Shown piece after piece: positions 8,897 through 60,681 of a stretch of DNA of 64,000 nt. Origin of the DNA: Bacillota bacterium (GTDB lineage Bacteria > Bacillota > Dehalobacteriia > UBA4068 > UBA4997); assembly GCA_021769035.1 (NCBI GenBank), contig JAETTP010000001.1, forward strand, positions 35,408-99,407. Direction: 5' to 3'. Numbering within the stretch: position 1 is the first letter of the stretch; every line of letters starts with the position of its first letter. The notes below the pieces were generated by a model. It saw only the letters and a list, made by a program, of their open reading frames with translations, searched no databases and was not told the DNA's origin. The translations under genes were made by a program, and so were the position numbers.

Positions 8897-8938
8897 ATGC
8901 TTGATTTCTCCATTTTAAAATTGAACAAACAAAAATAG
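8897..8938 (+). other. decayed 13-codon peptide ORF (MLDFSILKLNKQK) at the toxin position of a type I TA-like module
   Basis: ATG after AAGAAGGTG. Ends in the shared aatagccgcc...ggcggctatt terminator as the full-length copies do. Confidence 0.25.
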
Positions 8939-9023
8939 CCGCCCAGTTTCGCGATTGTCGCGGCTATTTTTATTATAGAAGCAAAATCGAGGGCTGACCC
9001 GGTTTAAGGGATCCGCTCTTTGT
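8928..9023 (-). ncRNA. antisense sRNA, family 1 (orphan/decayed-toxin copy)
   Basis: Minus-strand TTGACA(9058-9053)-17-TATACT(9035-9030). Body aaatacaaagagcggatcccttaaaccgggtcagccctc... homologous to copies at 11.5, 22.3 and 53.3 kb. Ends in hairpin plus U-run. Confidence 0.4.
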
Positions 9024-9712
9024 ATTTATAGTATAACAAGAAAAATTTGATTTGTCAACTGGTTTTTTGCCAAATTCATACAAAACAGCTAGGCTTACTA
9101 GGCAAGTATTTTGAAGACCAGGTGAAGAATTTGTGAAAAAAAATTAAAAATAATCTGTATTTTAAACACAAAACCCCTTTACGGATTGCAAAGGATGTGG
9201 TATAATCAGCTAAGATAAACTCTGTGTAAACTGATTTGGTTGTGTCAGGTGATGAGGCACAGGGTTTGGGGCCGCAAAAAACGGCCTGGGAGGAGGTTAT
9301 AATTAACGTTCCTTATGTGCTGAAAAGCGCTCCGCCAAAGCTTGCCGGCTTTGGGCAGCTGTTACAGGGGCAGCCCGCCAAAGGCCAACTGCCAAAAGCG
9401 GCCGCGCAACCCAGCATTACATATAGGAAAGCATTTGAAAATGCGCCGTGCCAAAACGTCGGCTGAAGCTAGCAGCCGGCCCCTTGGCCGAAGAACGTTC
9501 ATTCAGCCGCTGGCACGGGCAAAATTACGCAAACAGCAAAAAGGTTCCGTTTGCCCAATTTGGTAGAAGCAATATAAAAGAGGACAGCTAAAAACAGCAA
9601 TTATTTTTTCTTCTCCTCTTTTTGCCGGCTGTTGCCGGTTTTGCTAAAAACAAACGCAGCTTGCCTTGCTTTTTGCTAACAAATGCAAAAAAGAAAAAAG
9701 GAGGAACAAAAC

Positions 9713-11255: not shown

Positions 11256-11284
11256 TTGCTATTTAGCAAAAACTATAGTATAAT
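11256..11284 (+). promoter_or_regulatory. sigma-A type promoter of peptide A mRNA
   Basis: TTGCTA-17-TATAAT. Gives a ~130-nt 5' UTR. Confidence 0.5.
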
Positions 11285-11419
11285 ATTAATTACAAAGAGT
11301 TGAAACCTTAAACAGGCGGTTAGCCCTCGGACGCAAAGCAATACATTCGTGAAAAATGTATGGTTGAACGAAAGAGGGATTGGGGCCCTCCTCACAAAAA
11401 CAACGAGGAGGTGATGTTA

Positions 11420-11503
11420 ATGAGTTTTATGGAAGTCGCAACGTTTTTATTAGTACTTATAGCGTTTGCCGATGTGATATTAACCCATTGCAAAAAGAAA
11501 TAG
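11420..11503 (+). CDS. 27-aa hydrophobic Lys-tailed peptide (MSFMEVATFLLVLIAFADVILTHCKKK), putative type I toxin
   Basis: GAGGAGG SD 7 nt before ATG. That SD is perfectly complementary to an upstream CCTCCTC (SD-sequestering hairpin). Stop lies inside the terminator hairpin shared with the convergent sRNA. Confidence 0.55.
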   Translation: MSFMEVATFLLVLIAFADVILTHCKKK

Positions 11504-11584
11504 CCGCCCAGTTTCGCAGACTCGCGGCTATTCTTTTTAGCTAGCATCTGAGGGCTGACCCAGTTTAAGGGATCGGCTCTTTGT
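11492..11584 (-). ncRNA. antisense sRNA, family 1, putative type I antitoxin
   Basis: Minus-strand TTGACA(11619-11614)-17-TATAAT(11596-11591). Terminator is the same hairpin (11499-11532) followed by U-run. Overlaps peptide A 3' end by ~45 nt. Confidence 0.5.
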
Positions 11585-11760
11585 ACTTATATTATAGCAT
11601 TTGTTTTTGTTGTTGTCAATATGCCAAAAGCGGTTGAATAGAAAGTTTATGTTGTAATTTGTTGGTAAATATGCTATAATGGGACAGAAAAGAGTTGATT
11701 CTTTGGATGGCGGCCAACCTTACTCGTAAACTTTCGTTAAGCGAGGAAGGGGGTGAGCTC

Positions 11761-11844
11761 ATGAGTTTTGTTGAAGTAATTCTTTTACTTAGCTTTCTCA
11801 TTGAGGTTGTGGATTTTGTTTACCGAATCACAACAAAAAAATAG
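11761..11844 (+). CDS. 27-aa hydrophobic peptide variant (MSFVEVILLLSFLIEVVDFVYRITTKK), putative type I toxin
   Basis: Own promoter TTGTAA(11652)-17-TATAAT(11675). [13 protein letters not shown] sequestered by upstream ccttactcg. Stop sits in the atagccg...cggctat terminator. Confidence 0.5.
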   Translation: MSFVEVILLLSFLIEVVDFVYRITTKK

Positions 11845-11930: not shown

Positions 11931-12249
11931 TCTATTATTATAGCATTTGTTTTTGTTGTTGTCAATGCCCTTTTGCCGCCCAAACTCTTTAATGCCTAAT
12001 TTTTACCTAACCGCACCAGCAATACCTTTTCTCAATCGCTAAGTGTTCATAGAGGATTACATTTGCCTAAAGTCAAATGTATGCGTGAACACTAAGCTCT
12101 TGCTACGCCTTACAGGCTAAGCACTCGCTAAGTGTTCACGCAAAAAAACAGTAGACTTTTTGAGCTTGTGGGTGTAAAATATATTTATAAAAATTGTTAA
12201 AGCTTTCAGAAATCGACTTTGCTAACTTGCTCGATTGGAGGAATCAGCG

Positions 12250-22158: not shown

Positions 22159-22277
22159 GTATTTTGGCGTATTTTTTAGTAAAATAATACTGTATTATTA
22201 AGCCTCGGTTCGCCAGCTCAAAAGTTTTTAACGGTTCTGCGATTGACAAAAACAATTTTCAATGCTATAATATAAAT

Positions 22278-22370
22278 ATAAAGAGCCGACCCCTCAAACC
22301 GGGTCAGCCCTCAAAAGCTTCAGTTAAAAATAGCCGTTACCTTTGGAGCAGGGCGGCTATTTCTTTTTGC
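22278..22370 (+). ncRNA. antisense sRNA, family 1, putative type I antitoxin (copy C)
   Basis: TTGACA(22243)-17-TATAAT(22266). Body aaagagccgacccctcaaaccgggtcagccctc. Terminator aatagccg...cggctatttcttttt shared with convergent peptide C. Confidence 0.5.
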
Positions 22371-22440
22371 AATGGGTTAATATCACATCTGCCAACGCTA
22401 TAAGTACTAATAAAAACGTTGCGACCTCCATAAAACTCAT
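22357..22440 (-). CDS. 27-aa hydrophobic peptide (MSFMEVATFLLVLIALADVILTHCKKK), putative type I toxin copy C
   Basis: One residue different from copy A. Same GAGGAGG SD with CCTCCTC anti-SD. Minus-strand promoter TTGCAT(22602-22597)-17-TATAAT(22579-22574). Homologous ~130-nt 5' UTR. Confidence 0.55.
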   Translation of the reverse strand: MSFMEVATFLLVLIALADVILTHCKKK

Positions 22441-22682
22441 CAACATCACCTCCTCTCCTTGCGTTGAGGAGGGCCCCAATCCCTCAGTCAGCCAACTGTA
22501 CATTTTTCACCAATGCACCGTTTAACTTCCAAGGGCTAACCGCCTGTCTGAATTTTCAGCTCTTTGTATTTATATTATACAACCTTTTAGTTTTGTATGC
22601 AAGCTTATTTTAAAGTTGCCAAATCCTCCCTGCTTGTGCTATAATATATATTTAATAACCAGCACAAGCGAGGGATTTTTTT

Positions 22683-47293: not shown

Positions 47294-47364
47294 ACGTTTA
47301 TATTGACAACAGTACTATATTATAGTAAAATATAGGCAAATAATTTTTATAGTGAGGTATAGTT

Positions 47365-47472
47365 ATGCATCTTCCAGTTTATTCTTATGTCTTATCGGCT
47401 GTCAATGTAGTAATATTAGTTGCTATGACCTATTTGGTCTATCGAGTAGCTAAATTTTTCCTGAAAAAGTAA
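47365..47472 (+). CDS. 35-aa hydrophobic Lys-tailed membrane peptide (MHLPVYSYVLSAVNVVILVAMTYLVYRVAKFFLKK)
   Basis: Promoter TTGACA-17-TAAAAT at ~47306. SD GTGAGGT. Strong terminator gagccgcccttttcaaacaaagggcggctttttttgtg immediately after stop. Confidence 0.45.
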   Translation: MHLPVYSYVLSAVNVVILVAMTYLVYRVAKFFLKK

Positions 47473-47539
47473 AGTTTAAGAGAACGAGCCGCCCTTTTCA
47501 AACAAAGGGCGGCTTTTTTTGTGTAAACACTTAGCGATT

Positions 47540-47950
47540 GACAAGTCCACTTTTTTTAGATAACAGCTTTTCCACCTGTGCAGAAAAAAAACTTTTTCTT
47601 AAACCGAAATCTTCAAAAAAAACCTATTGTGATATTCCGTTAATTATAGTATAATATTCAGACACAGAAAAGTTTTTCCACCGAGTTTTACAGATTTTGG
47701 AAAACTTTGTGCACATTGGCTGTTATTAATCTGTGTAAAACTAATTATGCCAGTTAAAAAAAGGTTTTTTGCACAAAATTACCCCAGGCAATTAACATTT
47801 TATACCCACGCCAAAAAAGGCAGCAAAACCTTATAAAATCTGGCTGCAAAAAGTTTTCCACAAAATAAACACAGCTTATTATTATTACCACCATTTAAAT
47901 AACTATAATAATATATATGAGCCTCACAACAATAATATTACCAAAGGAGT
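47540..47950. other. oriC region (dnaA-dnaN intergenic)
   Basis: Multiple DnaA-box-like 9-mers (ttttccacc x2, gttttccaca). AT-rich unwinding stretch. Internal TTGTGA-17-TATAAT promoter. Confidence 0.5.
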
Positions 47951-50514: not shown

Positions 50515-51309
50515 ATGCAGAATTTGGATAAGATTAAGCAGGCGGAAATTGCCGTTTACGATTCCGGCGTGGGCGGTATCAGCTTTTTGCCCACAGCTTG
50601 CAGTTTGCTGCCGGCGGAGCGTTTCGTCTACTATGGCGATTTGGCTAACGCGCCTTACGGCGACCGCAGCCAGGCTTTTATTATTAATCGGGCCAGGGAG
50701 ATTGTGGCTTTTTTCCGCCAGCGTGGGGTTAAGGCTTTGGTGATTGCCTGCAACACGGCCACCAGCGCGGCGGCGGCCACTTTGCGGGCGGAGAACCCCG
50801 ACCTGCCGATTTTTGGCATGGAGCCGGCGGTGCATTTGGCTGTTAAGCGCGGCGAAAAGAAAATTATTATGCTGGCTACGGAGTTGACAGCCAACGGTGA
50901 AAAGCTGCGCCGGCTTTTAAGCGCGGAGGCCGGGGCGGCGGAAATTGTAACCATTGCTTGCCCCGGTTTGATGGAGTTGATTGAAACCAATTTGGTTAAG
51001 GGTGAAACGGCGGCGATTAAGGAATATTTGCAGGCTAAGCTTTTGCCGCAGGTGACGGACGGCTGCGCCGTGGTGCTTGGCTGCACGCATTATATTTTTT
51101 TGCGCGGTTTGCTGCCGCGGCTTTTTCCTGGTTTGCGCCTTTACGACGGCAATTTTGGCACAGCGCAAAATTTGCGCCATCGTTTGGCGCAGGCCGGCTT
51201 GCTGTGCCCGGAGGAGGGGCAGGCTATGGTTGGGGAAATTCCCTGCTTTGGTTTGCCGCCGGAAAAGTTTGCCGCTTATCTGAAGCTGGCCAGTTCATTG
51301 GAATATTAA
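50515..51309 (+). CDS. murI: glutamate racemase
   Basis: YDSGVGGIS, VIACNTAT, LGCTHY motifs. Confidence 0.9.
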   Translation: MQNLDKIKQAEIAVYDSGVGGISFLPTACSLLPAERFVYYGDLANAPYGDRSQAFIINRAREIVAFFRQRGVKALVIACNTATSAAAATLRAENPDLPIFGMEPAVHLAVKRGEKKIIMLATELTANGEKLRRLLSAEAGAAEIVTIACPGLMELIETNLVKGETAAIKEYLQAKLLPQVTDGCAVVLGCTHYIFLRGLLPRLFPGLRLYDGNFGTAQNLRHRLAQAGLLCPEEGQAMVGEIPCFGLPPEKFAAYLKLASSLEY

Positions 51310-51315
51310 GCTAAT

Positions 51316-51347
51316 AAAGCCCTCGGAGCGTGTACTCTGAGGGCTTT
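51316..51347. terminator. bidirectional terminator at island boundary
   Basis: aaagccctcggagcgtgtactctgagggcttt. Confidence 0.55.
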
Positions 51348-51359
51348 AATTAAAGATTA

Positions 51360-51686
51360 TTATTTATTTTTTCTTTTCTTGATAATTTTTTCCAGAAAAT
51401 ATTCTGAATATTGGTTGGGATTGTTAATAATCTCGTATGCTGCGATTGCAACCTGAATCCCGTACAAAGCGGCGGTTGTGGTTTTGGCTGAAACGTGGTC
51501 ATTAAAGTTGCGACGAAGTTCCTCTATAGTTTCATTTGAAACTTCTTTTCTCAAGCTGTTTAAGATACTAATAATGTTATCTTGCGTTAAATTAATTACG
51601 GGATTGTTGATTTCAAGTTTTAACCATTCATTCGTTTCCATAATGCTGTTTACTAGGTTAAAGCAAAATTTTGGATTTGTAAGCAT
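51360..51686 (-). CDS. hypothetical 108-aa protein, AT-rich codons, helical; possible HEPN-like Rx4H (RNFNDH)
   Basis: Start at MLTNPK with AGGAGG RBS 8 nt upstream. The ORF-track N-terminal extension MPNPKIRGV... is antisense to the sRNA promoter and is rejected. Confidence 0.5.
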   Translation of the reverse strand: MLTNPKFCFNLVNSIMETNEWLKLEINNPVINLTQDNIISILNSLRKEVSNETIEELRRNFNDHVSAKTTTAALYGIQVAIAAYEIINNPNQYSEYFLEKIIKKRKNK

Positions 51687-51755
51687 AAAAAAACCTCCTA
51701 AAATTTCGTTTGTAAAAGTCTTGCCAAAACAGGAGGTATATGCTATAATATTTAC

Positions 51756-51823
51756 ACCTCTTATTTTGGGGTTGGGCACTCACATTTGCTTTTGTGGGCG
51801 TGGTGGGTGTCCTTTTTTTATTT
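51756..51823 (+). ncRNA. sRNA X1 (promoter-to-terminator unit), convergent with RHH1
   Basis: TTGCCA(51721)-17-TATAAT(51744). Hairpin gggcactcac...gtgggtgtcc plus U9. No ORF. Confidence 0.4.
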
Positions 51824-51991
51824 GCTGAGTTCTTCGTCTACTTTTTCGTTTAACCAATCAGCTTTGGTTCTACCTTGAATTCTAAGTTTTGCTTCTAATG
51901 CTTCAACTTTTTCTCTTTTAAGCATTACGTTAAACTGTTTCATAGTTTTGCGTCTTTCACGAAAATACTCAGCTCTACTTTTTACGGCCAA
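51818..51991 (-). CDS. ribbon-helix-helix (CopG/ParD-like) small DNA-binding protein RHH1
   Basis: TTG start with AAAGGAGG RBS 7 nt upstream. ...KQFNVMLKREKVEALEAKLRIQGRTKADWLNEKV has beta-strand then two helices. Own minus-strand promoter TTGACA-17-TATAAT (52048-52019). Not in ORF track. Confidence 0.5.
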   Translation of the reverse strand: MAVKSRAEYFRERRKTMKQFNVMLKREKVEALEAKLRIQGRTKADWLNEKVDEELSK

Positions 51992-52148
51992 ATCGTCGCC
52001 TCCTTTGGTTGCCTGCTACAATTATATCAAGTTGCAGGCTACTTGTCAATAGGTTTTTGAAAAATTTAGATTGTAAGCATAAAAAACATCCTAAATTTTC
52101 GTTTGTAAAAGTCTTGCCAAAACAGGAGGTATATGCTATAATATTTAC

Positions 52149-52216
52149 ACCTCTTATTTTGGGGTTGGGCACTCACGTTTGCTTTTGCGGGCTTGGTGGG
52201 TGTCCTTTTTTATTTT
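52149..52216 (+). ncRNA. sRNA X2 (near-identical duplicate of X1), convergent with RHH2
   Basis: TTGCCA(52114)-17-TATAAT(52137). Same hairpin plus U-run overlapping the RHH2 stop codon. Confidence 0.4.
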
Positions 52217-52380
52217 TTTAACCTGTTATAGACCTCTTTAATACCTTGGCGAATGATTTCAGATTTTGTCAATCCAGTTTCTTGGACACAAAATTCAAGA
52301 CGTTTTATATCTTCTTCTGATAATCTAATTCGCGTATTTAATATTTTAGGGTCATTGGTTGGACGTCCTTTTGGGGACAA
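52210..52380 (-). CDS. ribbon-helix-helix (CopG/MobC-like) small protein RHH2
   Basis: TTG start after AAAGGAGGTG. (M)SPKGRPTNDPKILNTRIRLSEEDIKRLEFCVQETGLTKSEIIRQGI. Promoter TTGACA-17-TATAAT (52457-52428) overlapped by palindrome GTATCCACA-N14-TGTGGATAC. Confidence 0.6.
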   Translation of the reverse strand: MSPKGRPTNDPKILNTRIRLSEEDIKRLEFCVQETGLTKSEIIRQGIKEVYNRLKK

Positions 52381-52523
52381 GTTTTCACCTCCTTTTAGTA
52401 TCCACAATTATTATATGATATGTGGATACATTTGTCAAGAGGTTTTTGAAAAGTTTAGATTGTAAGCATAAAAAAACCTCCTAAAGTATTGAAATAACCC
52501 TCGGAAGCTGGTATAATAGATTT

Positions 52524-52599
52524 ACCGACCTCTAAAGGTTGTGTGTAATAACAGTATTGCTTGGCTTGTTTAGGGTGTTGCAATACTGTTATTTTTTTT
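52524..52599 (+). ncRNA. sRNA X3, convergent with RHH3
   Basis: TTGAAA(52489)-17-TGgTATAAT(52512). 11-bp stem aacagtattgc/gcaatactgtt plus U8. RHH3 stop lies in the stem. Confidence 0.4.
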
Positions 52600-52762
52600 G
52601 GCTCAAAAGTAAACTTATTCCTTGCCTAATTGCTTCGCCTTTAGTTATATTATTTTCTAAACTGTAAGCTTGCAATTTTTCTTCAGTTTCTAAATCTAGT
52701 CGAATACTGTACCGAATTGTTTTTGGATTATCTACTTTTGGACGACCAGTGCGTGGACTCAA
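52589..52762 (-). CDS. ribbon-helix-helix (CopG/MobC-like) small protein RHH3
   Basis: TTG start after AGGTGA. (M)SPRTGRPKVDNPKTIRYSIRLDLETEEKLQAYSLENNITKGEAIRQGI, paralogous to RHH2. Promoter TTGACT-17-TATAAT (52820-52790). Confidence 0.6.
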   Translation of the reverse strand: MSPRTGRPKVDNPKTIRYSIRLDLETEEKLQAYSLENNITKGEAIRQGISLLLSQKK

Positions 52763-52877
52763 ATCATCACCTACTTTCTGCCACACCATAATTATATAAA
52801 AAGCGTGACAAAAAGTCAATAGTTTTTTTGAAAAAATTCAGATTGACAAAAACAATTTAAAATGCTATAATAATAAA

Positions 52878-52963
52878 AAAGGCACCGTAAGTAAGCGGTT
52901 AGCCTCATCGTTTTGGTGTTATTTTTTAACAACCGTCACTACTGACACTAGTGGCGGTTTTTG
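52878..52963 (+). ncRNA. antisense sRNA X4, putative antitoxin of peptide D2
   Basis: TTGACA(52843)-17-TATAAT(52866). Terminator ccgtcact...agtggcgg plus U5. Overlaps last codons of convergent peptide. Confidence 0.45.
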
Positions 52964-53031
52964 CTATGTCTAAACTTAATCTCAATCGAAATTTTAAAAA
53001 TTCCAATATGAAATATCAGCTTTATTGGCAT
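52948..53031 (-). CDS. 27-aa amphipathic basic-tailed peptide (MPIKLIFHIGIFKISIEIKFRHSKNRH), putative type I toxin D2
   Basis: AAGGAGGTG SD 7 nt before ATG. Anti-SD atcctcc-aaaa-ggaggtg hairpin. Minus-strand promoter TTGACA(53238-53233)-17-TATAAT(53215-53210). ~170-nt 5' UTR carrying the CGCTAAGTG hairpin motif. Confidence 0.5.
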   Translation of the reverse strand: MPIKLIFHIGIFKISIEIKFRHSKNRH

Positions 53032-53308
53032 AGGCCTCACCTCCTTTTGGAGGATATTGACTAACCGTTAAGTGAGCACTTAGCGACTGCCAAGGCCGCA
53101 GGCCGCAGACAGAGCTTAGTGCGAACAAATACCGCAGGTGCAAATAGAATTGTCTGAAAACAAAACTTTGCTCCTGCGGTGCCTACCGTTTGTTACGATG
53201 CCTGTTTAAATTATACAAATTATTGTTCTTATTGTCAAGCTGCGCATAAGTTTTTGCTAACCTAATTTTGCGATTGACAAAAGCGATTTGAAATGCTATA
53301 ATAAAAGC

Positions 53309-53403
53309 ACAAAGAGCCGACTCCTTAAACCGGGTCAGCCATCAGAATTTAACAATTACATAAGTAATAGCCGTTTTTCTTGGTCAGGGCGGCTATTTTT
53401 TTT
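53309..53403 (+). ncRNA. antisense sRNA, family 1, orphan copy D (toxin decayed)
   Basis: TTGACA(53274)-17-TATAAT(53297). Body aagcacaaagagccgactccttaaaccgggtcagcc. Terminator aatagccg...cggctat-U9. Opposite strand 53404-53440 keeps only the 3' half of the toxin ORF (…LVLITFADLILTHCKKK*) with no start. Confidence 0.45.
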
Positions 53404-53508
53404 GCAATGGGTTAATATTAAATCGGCAAACGTTATAAGAACTAATAAAACCGCTACTAAATAGCCCTTAGTAGCGGTTTAGTATTATTTTTTTTGAATG
53501 TCAATATC

Positions 53509-54552
53509 TTAAAAAAGCCAGGCGCGAGCATAGGGCTGCCAATGCCATTCATTCAACAGAGAATCCAAATAGGGGCTGGTGGCGGCTGGCGCAGGATTTG
53601 GGGCTGCCATATTTTGATTAGGCATGGCCATTCTGGAAGCCACCGGCGCATTAACAATTTCGGAAATGGCAGGTGCAGCCGGGGCTACTGGAGCCATTGG
53701 AGCAGTAGCGGCGACGGTTTCTGCTGCTACAGTTGAATTAGCCGGTTGTAGGCTTTGTAATGCCTGTTGAAGGGTTTCGGTGTTCTGCCCGGTTAAAGTG
53801 GACAATATATTCATAATTTGCGGATTGTTGCTGACGTTTTTCAGCATTTGCAGCATTTGCGGATTTTCCTGCAATTCAGCCAGGCTGGTGGGCAAGTGTT
53901 GGTTGCCCAAGCCGGCAAAACCGGCCAGGCTGCTTAAACCGCCCAAGCCGCCTAAACCACCTAAGCCGGGGAAACCGCCTAAACCGCCAAGCCCACCCAA
54001 GCCAGGCAGGCCGCCCAAACCGGGCAGGCCGTTGGCTAAATTGCCCAGGCTGCCTAAATTGCCGCTGGCCAGGCTGCTTAAAAGTTGCAGGGGATTGGTA
54101 TTGGGCTTGCTTAGCAGACTGTTCATCATTTTGGCAAAGGGATTGTTGCTTTGATTAGCCTCTGCTTTAGGCTGAGCTTCCTTTTTTTTCTCATCAGTGA
54201 CTTTATCGCTAACTTCATCACTAACTTCAATAGGGGTGGTTTCAATGATGATGGTAGCCATTTCCGATTCTGTTGGCGTGGTCGATTCAGAAATTGGCTC
54301 TTCATTTGTGGAATTGTTGTTTGCTGGGGTTTCTGCGCTTGCTTCAACCTCAACTGTGGCCTCAGCCTCAGTTTCTGCCTCGGCATTGACTTCAATTTCC
54401 GCTTCAGCGGCTTCTATTGCTTCTTCGGAATCACCAGTTTCAGCCGCTTCTGTTTTGCTGTCTTTCACTTCCAGCTCGCTTAAATGTTGGGCCAGCTGTT
54501 CAAGCGCCTGGCTGGTTTCATACAAACGACTGATTAAATCAGTGTTGCTCAT
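53509..54552 (-). CDS. acidic low-complexity protein with EA/ET-rich N-domain and GLGG-repeat core
   Basis: AAAGAGGTG RBS. Preceded by terminator of upstream gene. Repeats LGGLPGLGGLGGLGGFPGLGGLGGLGGL. Confidence 0.6.
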   Translation of the reverse strand: MSNTDLISRLYETSQALEQLAQHLSELEVKDSKTEAAETGDSEEAIEAAEAEIEVNAEAETEAEATVEVEASAETPANNNSTNEEPISESTTPTESEMATIIIETTPIEVSDEVSDKVTDEKKKEAQPKAEANQSNNPFAKMMNSLLSKPNTNPLQLLSSLASGNLGSLGNLANGLPGLGGLPGLGGLGGLGGFPGLGGLGGLGGLSSLAGFAGLGNQHLPTSLAELQENPQMLQMLKNVSNNPQIMNILSTLTGQNTETLQQALQSLQPANSTVAAETVAATAPMAPVAPAAPAISEIVNAPVASRMAMPNQNMAAPNPAPAATSPYLDSLLNEWHWQPYARAWLF

Positions 54553-59802: not shown

Positions 59803-60681
59803 ATGGCAGAACTAATTAACATAGTCTGTCAATATTATAAAAAGATGAATTATACGCAAGGACATGTGGATTTGATTAAGGCTCCGGATGACCTTAAAGG
59901 TTTGCTGGAGCTGCGCAAAAAGCTGAATTTAACAATTCCTATTGGCCAGCTGAAAGAGATTGTTAAAGAGCTACCTTGCACCATAATCGACAAAATGACC
60001 GACGTGCAGTTTGTGCAGCTGCTGATGACTAGCGGCTTGCAGGGTTATCTGCTGTTTGTTGGTGATAAAAAGGTGGACACCAGCTTTGCGGCTTGGTGCG
60101 CGCATAAGGGAGCGGCGGAAATGCGGGAGCAGGGCGAAACTGTGCTGGAACCGCAGATTGCCGACCCGCGGCCATTTTATCGGCTTGCTCGGCTGCTTTC
60201 CGATAATGACGCAACGGTGATGGAGGAAATTCGTTTTGCCGGCGGACAGGCTGCGGCGGAATATTTTGCAGCCCGCAGAGAGCAGTTTATGGAGCGGGGA
60301 ATTCAGACGATGACCCAGTTGGCTGCTTTCAGCAGTGGTGAGATTTGGCTGCTTGGTCTGGTGGACGTGTTGATTAAGCAGCATTATGCTTGCGAACTGG
60401 ATTGGAAAGAGCCGATTGAGGAGTTTGCCGGAATGGTTTCCCAGCTGTTTGTGGTGCGAACGGAGGGCTTGCCGGTGAATAATTTTGGTCTGTTTGAGGA
60501 TGACGACGTTGAAATTTGGATTGAGCGGGTTAATCAGGCCTGGCGGCCGTTGGACTTTGTTCTGCTGACTATTGATATAGACAGTGATTCATACGTGCTG
60601 GCGCCGGCGCGCAGGCAATTTTTAACGGATATACAGGAAATTGCGCTGGAAGCCGGTATTAAAGTTTCGGTGTGTGGATAG
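59803..60681 (+). CDS. hypothetical protein
   Basis: 292-aa ORF followed by hairpin terminator 60706-60750. Confidence 0.5.
   Translation: MAELINIVCQYYKKMNYTQGHVDLIKAPDDLKGLLELRKKLNLTIPIGQLKEIVKELPCTIIDKMTDVQFVQLLMTSGLQGYLLFVGDKKVDTSFAAWCAHKGAAEMREQGETVLEPQIADPRPFYRLARLLSDNDATVMEEIRFAGGQAAAEYFAARREQFMERGIQTMTQLAAFSSGEIWLLGLVDVLIKQHYACELDWKEPIEEFAGMVSQLFVVRTEGLPVNNFGLFEDDDVEIWIERVNQAWRPLDFVLLTIDIDSDSYVLAPARRQFLTDIQEIALEAGIKVSVCG

Follow-up and report, generated by a model that had tools for sequence, protein, structure and literature searches.

The question raised by this locus is why a gene for a small RNA (sRNA) that appears complete should stand opposite only the end of a peptide gene. The 64,000-nt stretch of a Bacillota genome analysed here (contig JAETTP010000001.1; hereafter the window) contains several copies of a compact unit in which an sRNA gene converges on a short open reading frame (ORF) for a hydrophobic peptide, and one of them, copy D, is in this state. 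The explanation that we favour, with a probability of about 0.7, is that D represents a defunct copy of an unannotated module that occurs several times and resembles type I toxin-antitoxin systems, and that its RNA gene, sRNA-D, is a leftover antitoxin gene. An earlier description of this DNA, made without database searches (the sequence-only reading), had presented D as an orphan antitoxin beside a 5'-truncated toxin and, as far as sequence comparison can tell, was right in substance, being supported by the alignment with the intact copies A and C and by the sister strains described below.

The promoter scan found TTGACA-17-TATAAT (12/12 match) with an extended -10 TG at 53274-53302 on the plus strand, where the sequence-only reading had placed the sRNA-D promoter; it shares 86% identity with the copy C promoter and 28 of 29 positions with that of the D-like copy of a sister strain (L025). 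An opposing perfect promoter of the same form, that of the small ORF of the neighbouring D2 module (53238-53210, minus strand), lies back-to-back with it at a distance of 35 bp, facing outwards, and the same divergent layout was indeed found between units A and B. Five 12/12 promoters lie within 2.4 kb, and 21 matches of at least 9/12 were seen where shuffles give an expectation of 7.0. The RNA predicted from the family alignment, a covariance model and the fold is about 96 nt long (53309-53404, plus strand), its 5' end being set at an A located 7 nt past the -10. It begins with a conserved 5' hairpin domain (53309-53345; ACAAAGAG-hairpin-AGCCAUC), which is 86-92% identical to those of copies A, C and the metagenome copy L002, and ends in an intrinsic terminator (53366-53404) with a 12-bp stem and 8 U. 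The terminator hairpin (53366-53397), also noticed earlier, folds at -12.8 kcal/mol (z -4.05), and none of 200 shuffles was as stable. As its promoter is still perfect and its terminator good, transcription of sRNA-D probably continues. The claim that its body is that of the family stood as to membership, the family covariance model (R1) giving 82.2 bits (E 2e-17), but not as to full conservation: this is the lowest score among the seven training copies, the linker carries a private 6-nt insertion, and a private C-to-A change at 53341 disrupts the G-C pair at the base of the 5' hairpin and the invariant GCCCUC, which is present at the equivalent position in all six other family copies and in both sister-strain D-like copies.

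Of the toxin, only codons ~10-26 (LLVLITFADLILTHCKK; 53398-53447, minus strand) of a 27-codon ORF for a hydrophobic, Lys-tailed peptide survive, without start codon, Shine-Dalgarno sequence (SD) or promoter. Besides copies A and C, the only place in the window where the 26-mer GATRTGATATTAACCCATTGCAAAAA was found is 53399-53424, with 2 mismatches (chance expectation 0), in agreement with the earlier statement that only the 3' part is left on the minus strand; the remnant differs from copy A at 5 and from copy C at 7 of 57 nt, and its identity to copy C is 86%. Two details of that statement had to be corrected. The alignment of 53393-53403 (minus strand) shows an A-run 1 nt shorter in D (8 A against AAAAAGAAA in A and C), followed by the old stop TAG (53395-53393), which is therefore out of frame, so that the remnant does not end in KKK and a stop but continues as …HCKKNSRPDQ… (…LLVLITFADLILTHCKKNSRPDQEKRLLLM, then a stop), the whole frame from stop to stop being TATKGYLVAVLLVLITFADLILTHCKKNSRPDQEKRLLLM. 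The in-frame stop upstream of the remnant is TAA (53481-53479) and not a TAG just before it, and between this codon and the remnant neither ATG, GTG or TTG nor an SD was found, so a start overlooked by the sequence-only reading did not come to light. Compared with its paralogues A and C, the ORF of D thus lacks the promoter, the ~130-nt leader, the SD, the start codon and the first ~9 codons, and the alignment leaves a complete sRNA gene beside a 5'-less toxin ORF. The features of a type I small-peptide ORF (<60 aa, with its own promoter, SD and start) are found in A, B and C and are missing from D. Of the traits that define an orphan type I antitoxin (an antitoxin gene with intact signals, no functional cognate toxin and a detectable transcript), D shows the first two. 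Read on the toxin strand, the D hairpin reaches only -9.1 kcal/mol and is followed by UACUUAU instead of a U-tract, against -17.3 and -16.4 kcal/mol, both with U-tracts, in copies A and C; by these predicted folds, the once bidirectional terminator of D is in working shape only in the sRNA direction.

The missing 5' end is replaced by a 14-bp hairpin (53448-53480; -20 kcal/mol, followed by UUUUAUU), which is unique in the window and now lies 3' of a gene at 53509-54552. The earlier suggestion that this is the terminator of that gene holds for its position but not for its origin: the hairpin is absent downstream of the orthologues of the gene in three distant relatives (L008, L011 and L016), and, read as 53480-53448, it matches at 32 of 33 positions the shared terminator AAACCGCTACTAAGGGCTATTTAGTGGCGGTTTT of a D2-type module in L025 (993-1025). 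On the strength of this match, the hairpin is best described as what is left of a bidirectional terminator that belonged to a D2-type module and is still intact in L025. About 100 nt that precede the hairpin in L025 are missing from the window, and the two sequences diverge directly past GCGGTTTT; the junction between hairpin and toxin remnant lies in this T-run (GCGGTTTT/ATTAG), at toxin codon 9/10. A breakpoint at codons 5-8, based on weak similarity within the hairpin arm, was dropped for the T-run junction, given the origin of the hairpin seen in L025.

The body of sRNA-D aligns with copies at 8930-9024 (minus), 11495-11585 (minus) and 22277-22365 (plus) of the window, as well as with three copies from a Peptococcaceae metagenome-assembled genome (L001) and the metagenome contig L002. 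Pattern scans of genomes and metagenomes returned the family only from one such Peptococcaceae genome and one metagenome contig, and the viral contigs searched held neither the sRNA nor the toxin. All these RNAs are built alike: the 5' domain is a hairpin (ACAAAGAG, stem-loop, AGCCCUC), the linker is A/U-rich and variable, and a terminator (AAUAGCCG...CGGCUAUUU, then U's) closes the RNA. Two-sided compensatory changes were found in no pair of the consensus structure of the seven family copies, and the structure therefore rests on energy and wobble-compatible transitions; in the D-like copy of L025, one G-C pair of the terminator stem is replaced by A-U.

Two copies of the window serve as intact references. 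Copy A (11256-11619) has a toxin promoter at 11256-11284 (plus strand, 10/12), the ORF at 11420-11503 (MSFMEVATFLLVLIAFADVILTHCKKK) and the sRNA-A promoter at 11619-11591 (minus strand, 12/12 with TG), while copy C (22243-22600) carries the sRNA on the plus strand (promoter 22243-22271) and the toxin ORF at 22357-22440 on the minus strand. Their peptide is MSFMEVATFLLVLIA(F/L)ADVILTHCKKK, that of copy B (ORF 11761-11844) is MSFVEVILLLSFLIEVVDFVYRITTKK and that of L002 is MTFLEISALLMLLLAVADFALRHGKKK; the best 15-residue Kyte-Doolittle stretch of the peptides scores 2.5-2.7, and they have a KKK tail. The toxin promoters of A and B match at 10/12 positions, the toxin promoter of C (TTGCAT-17-TATAAT) was read by eye and is not on the scan list, and the sRNA promoters of the family are 12/12 with TG in all copies except E. 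In A, C and L002 the design is that of a ~250-nt toxin mRNA with a ~130-nt leader and a 27-residue, Lys-tailed hydrophobic peptide. All predicted folds of these mRNAs pair the SD (GAGGAGG or GGGGAGG) with a CCUCCUC located further upstream, the mean unpaired probability being 0.08-0.18 with the 5' end present or removed. In A, C and L002 the toxin mRNA and the sRNA are complementary where they overlap, over 46-49 nt comprising the terminator and the last three toxin codons, and energies of -81 to -93 kcal/mol are predicted for the cognate duplexes (46-49 bp); in D, the gene of the presumed antisense RNA is complete by sequence. On both strands of A and C, the shared terminator forms stable hairpins with U-tracts. 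Beyond this overlap, the sRNA 5' domain showed no complementarity to the mRNA body in excess of dinucleotide shuffles (z -0.07 to -0.62). Copy E (sRNA gene 8930-9058, minus strand; 89.6 bits, promoter 11/12) is probably a second orphan sRNA gene, as only a 13-codon ORF (MLDFSILKLNKQK) and no usable toxin lies opposite to it, and no plus-strand promoter was found for its toxin side.

In the intact copies, a weak promoter would thus produce the ~250-nt toxin mRNA and a consensus promoter opposite a ~90-nt RNA, both ending at one bidirectional terminator, and pairing of the RNA with the mRNA 3' end would lead to decay or keep translation off. This mode of action is proposed by analogy with the 3'-overlap systems of Bacillus and Staphylococcus, txpA/RatA, bsrG/SR4, bsrE/SR5 and yonT/SR6 of B. 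subtilis and sprG/sprF of S. aureus (PMC6562991, PMC3834814, PMC6393307). In these systems, too, the genes converge and their RNAs are complementary only at the 3' ends; the peptide is small and hydrophobic and ends in a basic tail, a hairpin holds the SD, the antitoxin gene has a strong promoter, and the loci lie in islands that vary between strains. The restriction of complementarity to the overlapping 3' ends, typical of the TxpA/BsrG type, is also found in the window family, which differs in having no peptide or RNA sequence match to these systems and in the conserved 5' domain of its sRNA, resembling the toxin mRNA 5' end in the same sense. The overlap in the Bacillus and sprG-type systems is roughly 75-120 nt, against 46-49 nt here, where it is essentially the shared terminator. 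The N-terminal M-S-F-x-E motif of the window peptide may resemble that of TxpA/BsrG/BsrE family peptides, and distant kinship with TxpA/BsrG-type peptides is possible despite empty searches, since a query of 27-30 residues has little power.

Another system of related layout is par (fst/RNA II) of the E. faecalis plasmid pAD1, whose convergent RNAs end at one bidirectional terminator and whose peptide has ~30 residues; direct repeats make its two RNA 5' ends complementary across the toxin start region. The bidirectional terminator is common to par and to copies A and C, whereas in D only the sRNA direction keeps its U-tract. Unlike in par, the 5' ends of the window family are alike in sense and not complementary, there is no excess pairing between 5' domain and mRNA, and no match to Pfam or Rfam (Fst/Ldr toxin, Rfam antitoxin model) was obtained; a par-like interaction between the sRNA 5' domain and the region of the toxin start was rejected, being no better than in shuffles. 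The CD-toxin/RCd modules of C. difficile (PMC6563280) are similar in their Clostridia-class host, multiple paralogues, hydrophobic N-terminal part and Lys-rich C-terminus, and antitoxin specificity is likewise expected to be cognate-only. Their toxins have 34-53 residues, are located in prophages or beside CRISPR arrays and show no sequence similarity to the window family, which in its architecture matches the traits given in the review PMC6563280 for type I modules without sequence homology.

No family of the libraries searched accounts for these genes. Rfam gave no match at the gathering score in the whole window and nothing relevant at E<=10 over 51300-53600, Pfam-A and NCBIfam held no family matching the peptide at E<=10, and neither phmmer of the 30-codon ORF against 1.84 billion protein representatives nor tblastn of the peptide against plasmid and phage records returned a match, both with little power for so short a query. 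With Pfam, NCBIfam, phmmer and tblastn all empty, homology of the peptide to known toxins was set aside. These negatives are what might be expected if the family were not a toxin-antitoxin system at all but an sRNA with a small membrane peptide of some other role, D then being a decayed copy of that, and some candidates of like architecture are non-toxic, such as YhzE-2 (PMC2887945). The comparison of window and metagenome copy L002 is in line with the same idea: the sRNA 5' domain, which lies outside the overlap, is 92-95% identical between the organisms, whereas the toxin coding sequence is 69-70% and the leader 74-78% identical, a hint at a function other than antisense. We nevertheless regard this reading as unlikely, because the type I architecture is matched point by point (a strong antisense and a weak toxin promoter, a sequestered SD, a hydrophobic Lys-tailed peptide, multiple copies and variable islands), and the same traits are given as common to type I systems that share no sequence homology (PMC6563280).

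The 5' domain deserves attention in its own right. The toxin mRNA 5' ends carry a same-sense look-alike of it (ACAAAGAG...GGUUAGCCCUC), with 28-32 matches over 42-46 aligned positions, and in intact units both mRNA and sRNA start with ACAAAGAG...(G)GUYAGCCCUC, which makes an inverted repeat in the DNA (11292-11332/11548-11584 in A, 22530-22574/22278-22314 in C, and 249-295/515-552 in L002). A switch in which the sRNA AGCCCUC replaces the AGCCCUC of the mRNA 5' end and frees the SD was not supported, the SD being equally sequestered (0.08-0.18) in folds of full-length and 5'-truncated mRNAs of A, C and L002. A role of the domain in RNA stability or in the binding of a common factor is possible. 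Its position outside the overlap, its conservation across organisms, the best of any part, and its mirroring by the mRNA 5' ends also allow the speculative and rather doubtful view that it (ACAAAGAG-hairpin-AGCCCUC) is an independent functional module, which might serve as a seed towards further targets or be bound by some shared factor, and through which the orphans D and E persist; they would then be free-standing regulators derived from dead toxin-antitoxin pairs. The promoters of sRNA-A and sRNA-B (11590-11620 and 11936-11966) are 100% identical over 31 nt, though the RNAs they drive differ, which suggests recent gene conversion or duplication between these adjacent units.

The state of D can be compared with that of near-identical strains, which were located through the ribbon-helix-helix (RHH) gene beside D2 and mapped by BLAST over the island. 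In L025, where the 347-residue gene (53509-54552 in the window) is followed by an inverted D2-type module, the D-like sRNA gene is complete (R1 76.9 bits; promoter and 5' domain 92% identical to those of D), with ~3 toxin codons left. In L027, where the terminator is deleted, the D-like promoter and 5' domain run straight into a short 3' remnant of the toxin, which has TA as in D, where A and C have TG. In L019-L024 the 5' domain is missing, and nothing but the family terminator is left (R1 22.5 bits). Among the strains reached through the surroundings of the RHH gene or the 347-residue gene, none was found to have an intact D toxin, and the three sister-strain variants are D-lineage copies in other states of decay; five Logan contigs have the version of the window and are identical, except for one that differs at one base elsewhere. 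This series supports the orphan-antitoxin reading of D.

The events at D can be pictured as follows. A rearrangement probably fused toxin codon ~10 to the relic terminator of another module, with the loss of promoter, leader, SD and start; the in-frame stop was lost to a 1-nt deletion, and the U-tract in the toxin direction has disappeared as well. sRNA-D is left without its cognate target and is most likely drifting towards loss. Decay of the toxin first is the expected order, as an antitoxin cannot go before its toxin. The change in an invariant base, the lowest score of the family and the further-decayed sister versions make it most likely that sRNA-D is such a leftover.

Several points weigh against this explanation. 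The names toxin and antitoxin are given to peptide and RNA by analogy of architecture, the peptide belongs to no known toxin family, and the presumed transcription of sRNA-D is read from consensus signals. The promoter and 5' domain of D are 76-89% identical to those of A and C, while A and C are 79-86% identical over the same parts; as D is no more diverged than A is from C, nothing clearly indicates that constraint on the sRNA gene has been relaxed. This lack of contrast between constrained and free parts would also fit a truncation that may be fairly recent. Promoter and 5' domain are kept in three of the four strain variants, and retention of sRNA-D by selection is possible.

If selection does keep sRNA-D, it might be as a spare antitoxin acting in trans on A, C, B or incoming homologues, in the sense of anti-addiction or cross-protection. 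Its perfect promoter and good terminator fit with this, as do the D-like orphans that persist in L025 and L027 and the second orphan, copy E. Across the 64-kb window, sRNA-D finds its best complements at the 3' ends of the toxin mRNAs, with 14 (C), 12 (A) and 13 (B) contiguous nt, and the predicted duplexes reach -50.2 kcal/mol with C and -43.8 kcal/mol with A, similar to the -54 to -60 kcal/mol of other non-cognate pairs. These energies are, however, about half those of the cognate pairs, and the terminator loops differ. In the two multi-copy systems of comparable design in which this was tested, only cognate or near-identical antitoxins rescued from toxicity, as found for SprF/SprG and for the RCd RNAs of C. 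difficile, though RNA levels could change across pairs (PMC6393307, PMC6563280), and trans-protection is given low weight for this reason. The private change in the invariant GCCCUC and the complete loss of the sRNA body in L019-L024 point in the same direction, so that a retained spare antitoxin seems improbable, and repression of A or C in trans through the 12-14 contiguous nt of predicted pairing, which the sequence-only reading had proposed as a matter for testing, is possible but unlikely. As for other trans targets, the D-specific linker has one 13-nt complement, at 59925-59937, which is antisense to a coding ORF and consistent with chance; it was not retained as a candidate.

The preferred reading of D as a dead module has documented parallels. 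Loci with orz only occur in many E. coli strains, and the orphan OrzP is expressed in MG1655 (PMC11264685); in S. aureus HG003 all core-genome sprG/sprF RNAs examined were expressed except SprG4 (PMC6393307). The orzP loci of E. coli K-12 and sprG4/sprF4 resemble D in having a working-looking antitoxin gene beside a missing or silent toxin, with intact paralogous pairs elsewhere in the genome. They differ from it in their RNA and peptide families, and D, known from sequence alone, shows in addition the toxin remnant, the deletion junction and the further-decayed sister versions. D thus appears to be a further case of an orphan type I antitoxin, in a family without entry in the libraries searched. 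Toxin-first loss that leaves a temporary orphan antitoxin is expected and already documented, so the finding in itself matters little; the locus is of use as a clean, datable example in which one can see the junction and the frameshift as well as three further states of decay, and the island around it, which adjoins replication-origin genes, as a site where tiny RNA and peptide modules are repeatedly shuffled and deleted. No described type I family for Peptococcaceae-related Clostridia was found in the searches made, and annotation of this one would add a new type I-like family for them, whose loci would no longer be mistaken for empty intergenic sequence.

The neighbouring gene (53509-54552, minus strand) encodes 347 residues and has homologues of ~40% identity. 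With the U-tract in the toxin direction of D lost, any transcript reading through from it would span the sRNA-D gene from end to end and could pair with the RNA over its full length, and it is conceivable that sRNA-D was co-opted against this gene, either by pairing with transcripts that run past the relic hairpin or by antisense transcription into the gene. Little read-through is expected past a hairpin of -20 kcal/mol followed by UUUUAUU. On the plus strand the same hairpin (53448-53480) forms a second terminator-like structure after the first; this second structure counts in favour of co-option, but two successive terminators make antisense transcription into the gene unlikely. As quite different arrangements lie beside the same gene in the sister strains, we consider co-option very improbable.

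On the contigs of the homologues, dnaA-dnaN-S4-recF-murI is convergent with the 347-residue gene, which is followed by a small Cys-rich gene and by SCIFF with its radical-SAM partner. The gap between murI and the 347-residue gene measures 190-340 bp in the more distant relatives and contains no family sRNA there, whereas in the window it is a strain-variable island of 2.2 kb (51310-53508) near oriC. This island consists of five units in head-to-tail order, three with CopG/RHH genes, then D2 and D. In each, a plus-strand sRNA-like gene converges on a small gene of the minus strand, and adjacent units are separated by back-to-back promoters. As judged from the strain comparison, it is rearranged from strain to strain. 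The RNAs of the units are 70-95 nt long and terminated, with strong plus-strand promoters, and the small minus-strand genes have strong promoters of their own. The CopG/RHH genes are located at 51818-51991, 52210-52380 and 52589-52790 (minus strand); this family of ~57 residues is widespread at 70-80% identity, phage contigs included. A weak, sub-threshold Rfam hint of pT181 ctRNA was noticed at 51740-51827.

The D2 module (52843-53031) comprises a plus-strand sRNA gene (promoter 52843-52871, terminator 52931-52959) and a convergent 27-codon ORF (52948-53031, minus strand; MPIKLIFHIGIFKISIEIKFRHSKNRH), the promoter of which, at 53210-53238, was mentioned above; homologues occur in both orientations across strains (L020 320-600, L025 905-1190 and L027 1-130). 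Its peptide (MPIKLIFHIGIFKISIEIKFRHSKNRH) is conserved at 27-30 residues and only weakly hydrophobic, with an overall hydropathy of 0.03 and a net charge of +5, and its SD lies within a CCUCC-AAAA-GGAGG hairpin, a convergent sRNA being present as in the other units. The promoters of sRNA-D and sRNA-D2 are similar (53272-53303 and 52841-52872) and may be substrates of the strain-to-strain rearrangements.

Some further elements were noticed around these genes. The sequence GATATTGACAAACYATGTYAGGTAATG starts at the stop codon of orthologues of the 347-residue gene (L008 5940-5985, L011 5946-5990 and L016 1257-1300), the proteins being only ~40% identical, and in the window (53499-53511) and the sister strains only ATATTGACATTC remains of it. 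A small module at 47303-47530, in which a hydrophobic peptide of 35 residues (MHLPVYSYVLSAVNVVILVAMTYLVYRVAKFFLKK) is encoded behind a TTGACA...TAAAAT promoter and an SD and is followed by a terminator, lies directly before DnaA-box-like repeats (47540-47740), likely the oriC region. An inverted motif, CGCTAAGTG(T/C)TCAC / GTGA(A/G)CACTTAGCG, which may be a REP-like element or an operator, is found downstream of unit B (12030-12145) and in the D2 leader (53070-53130), with a partial copy near 47530.

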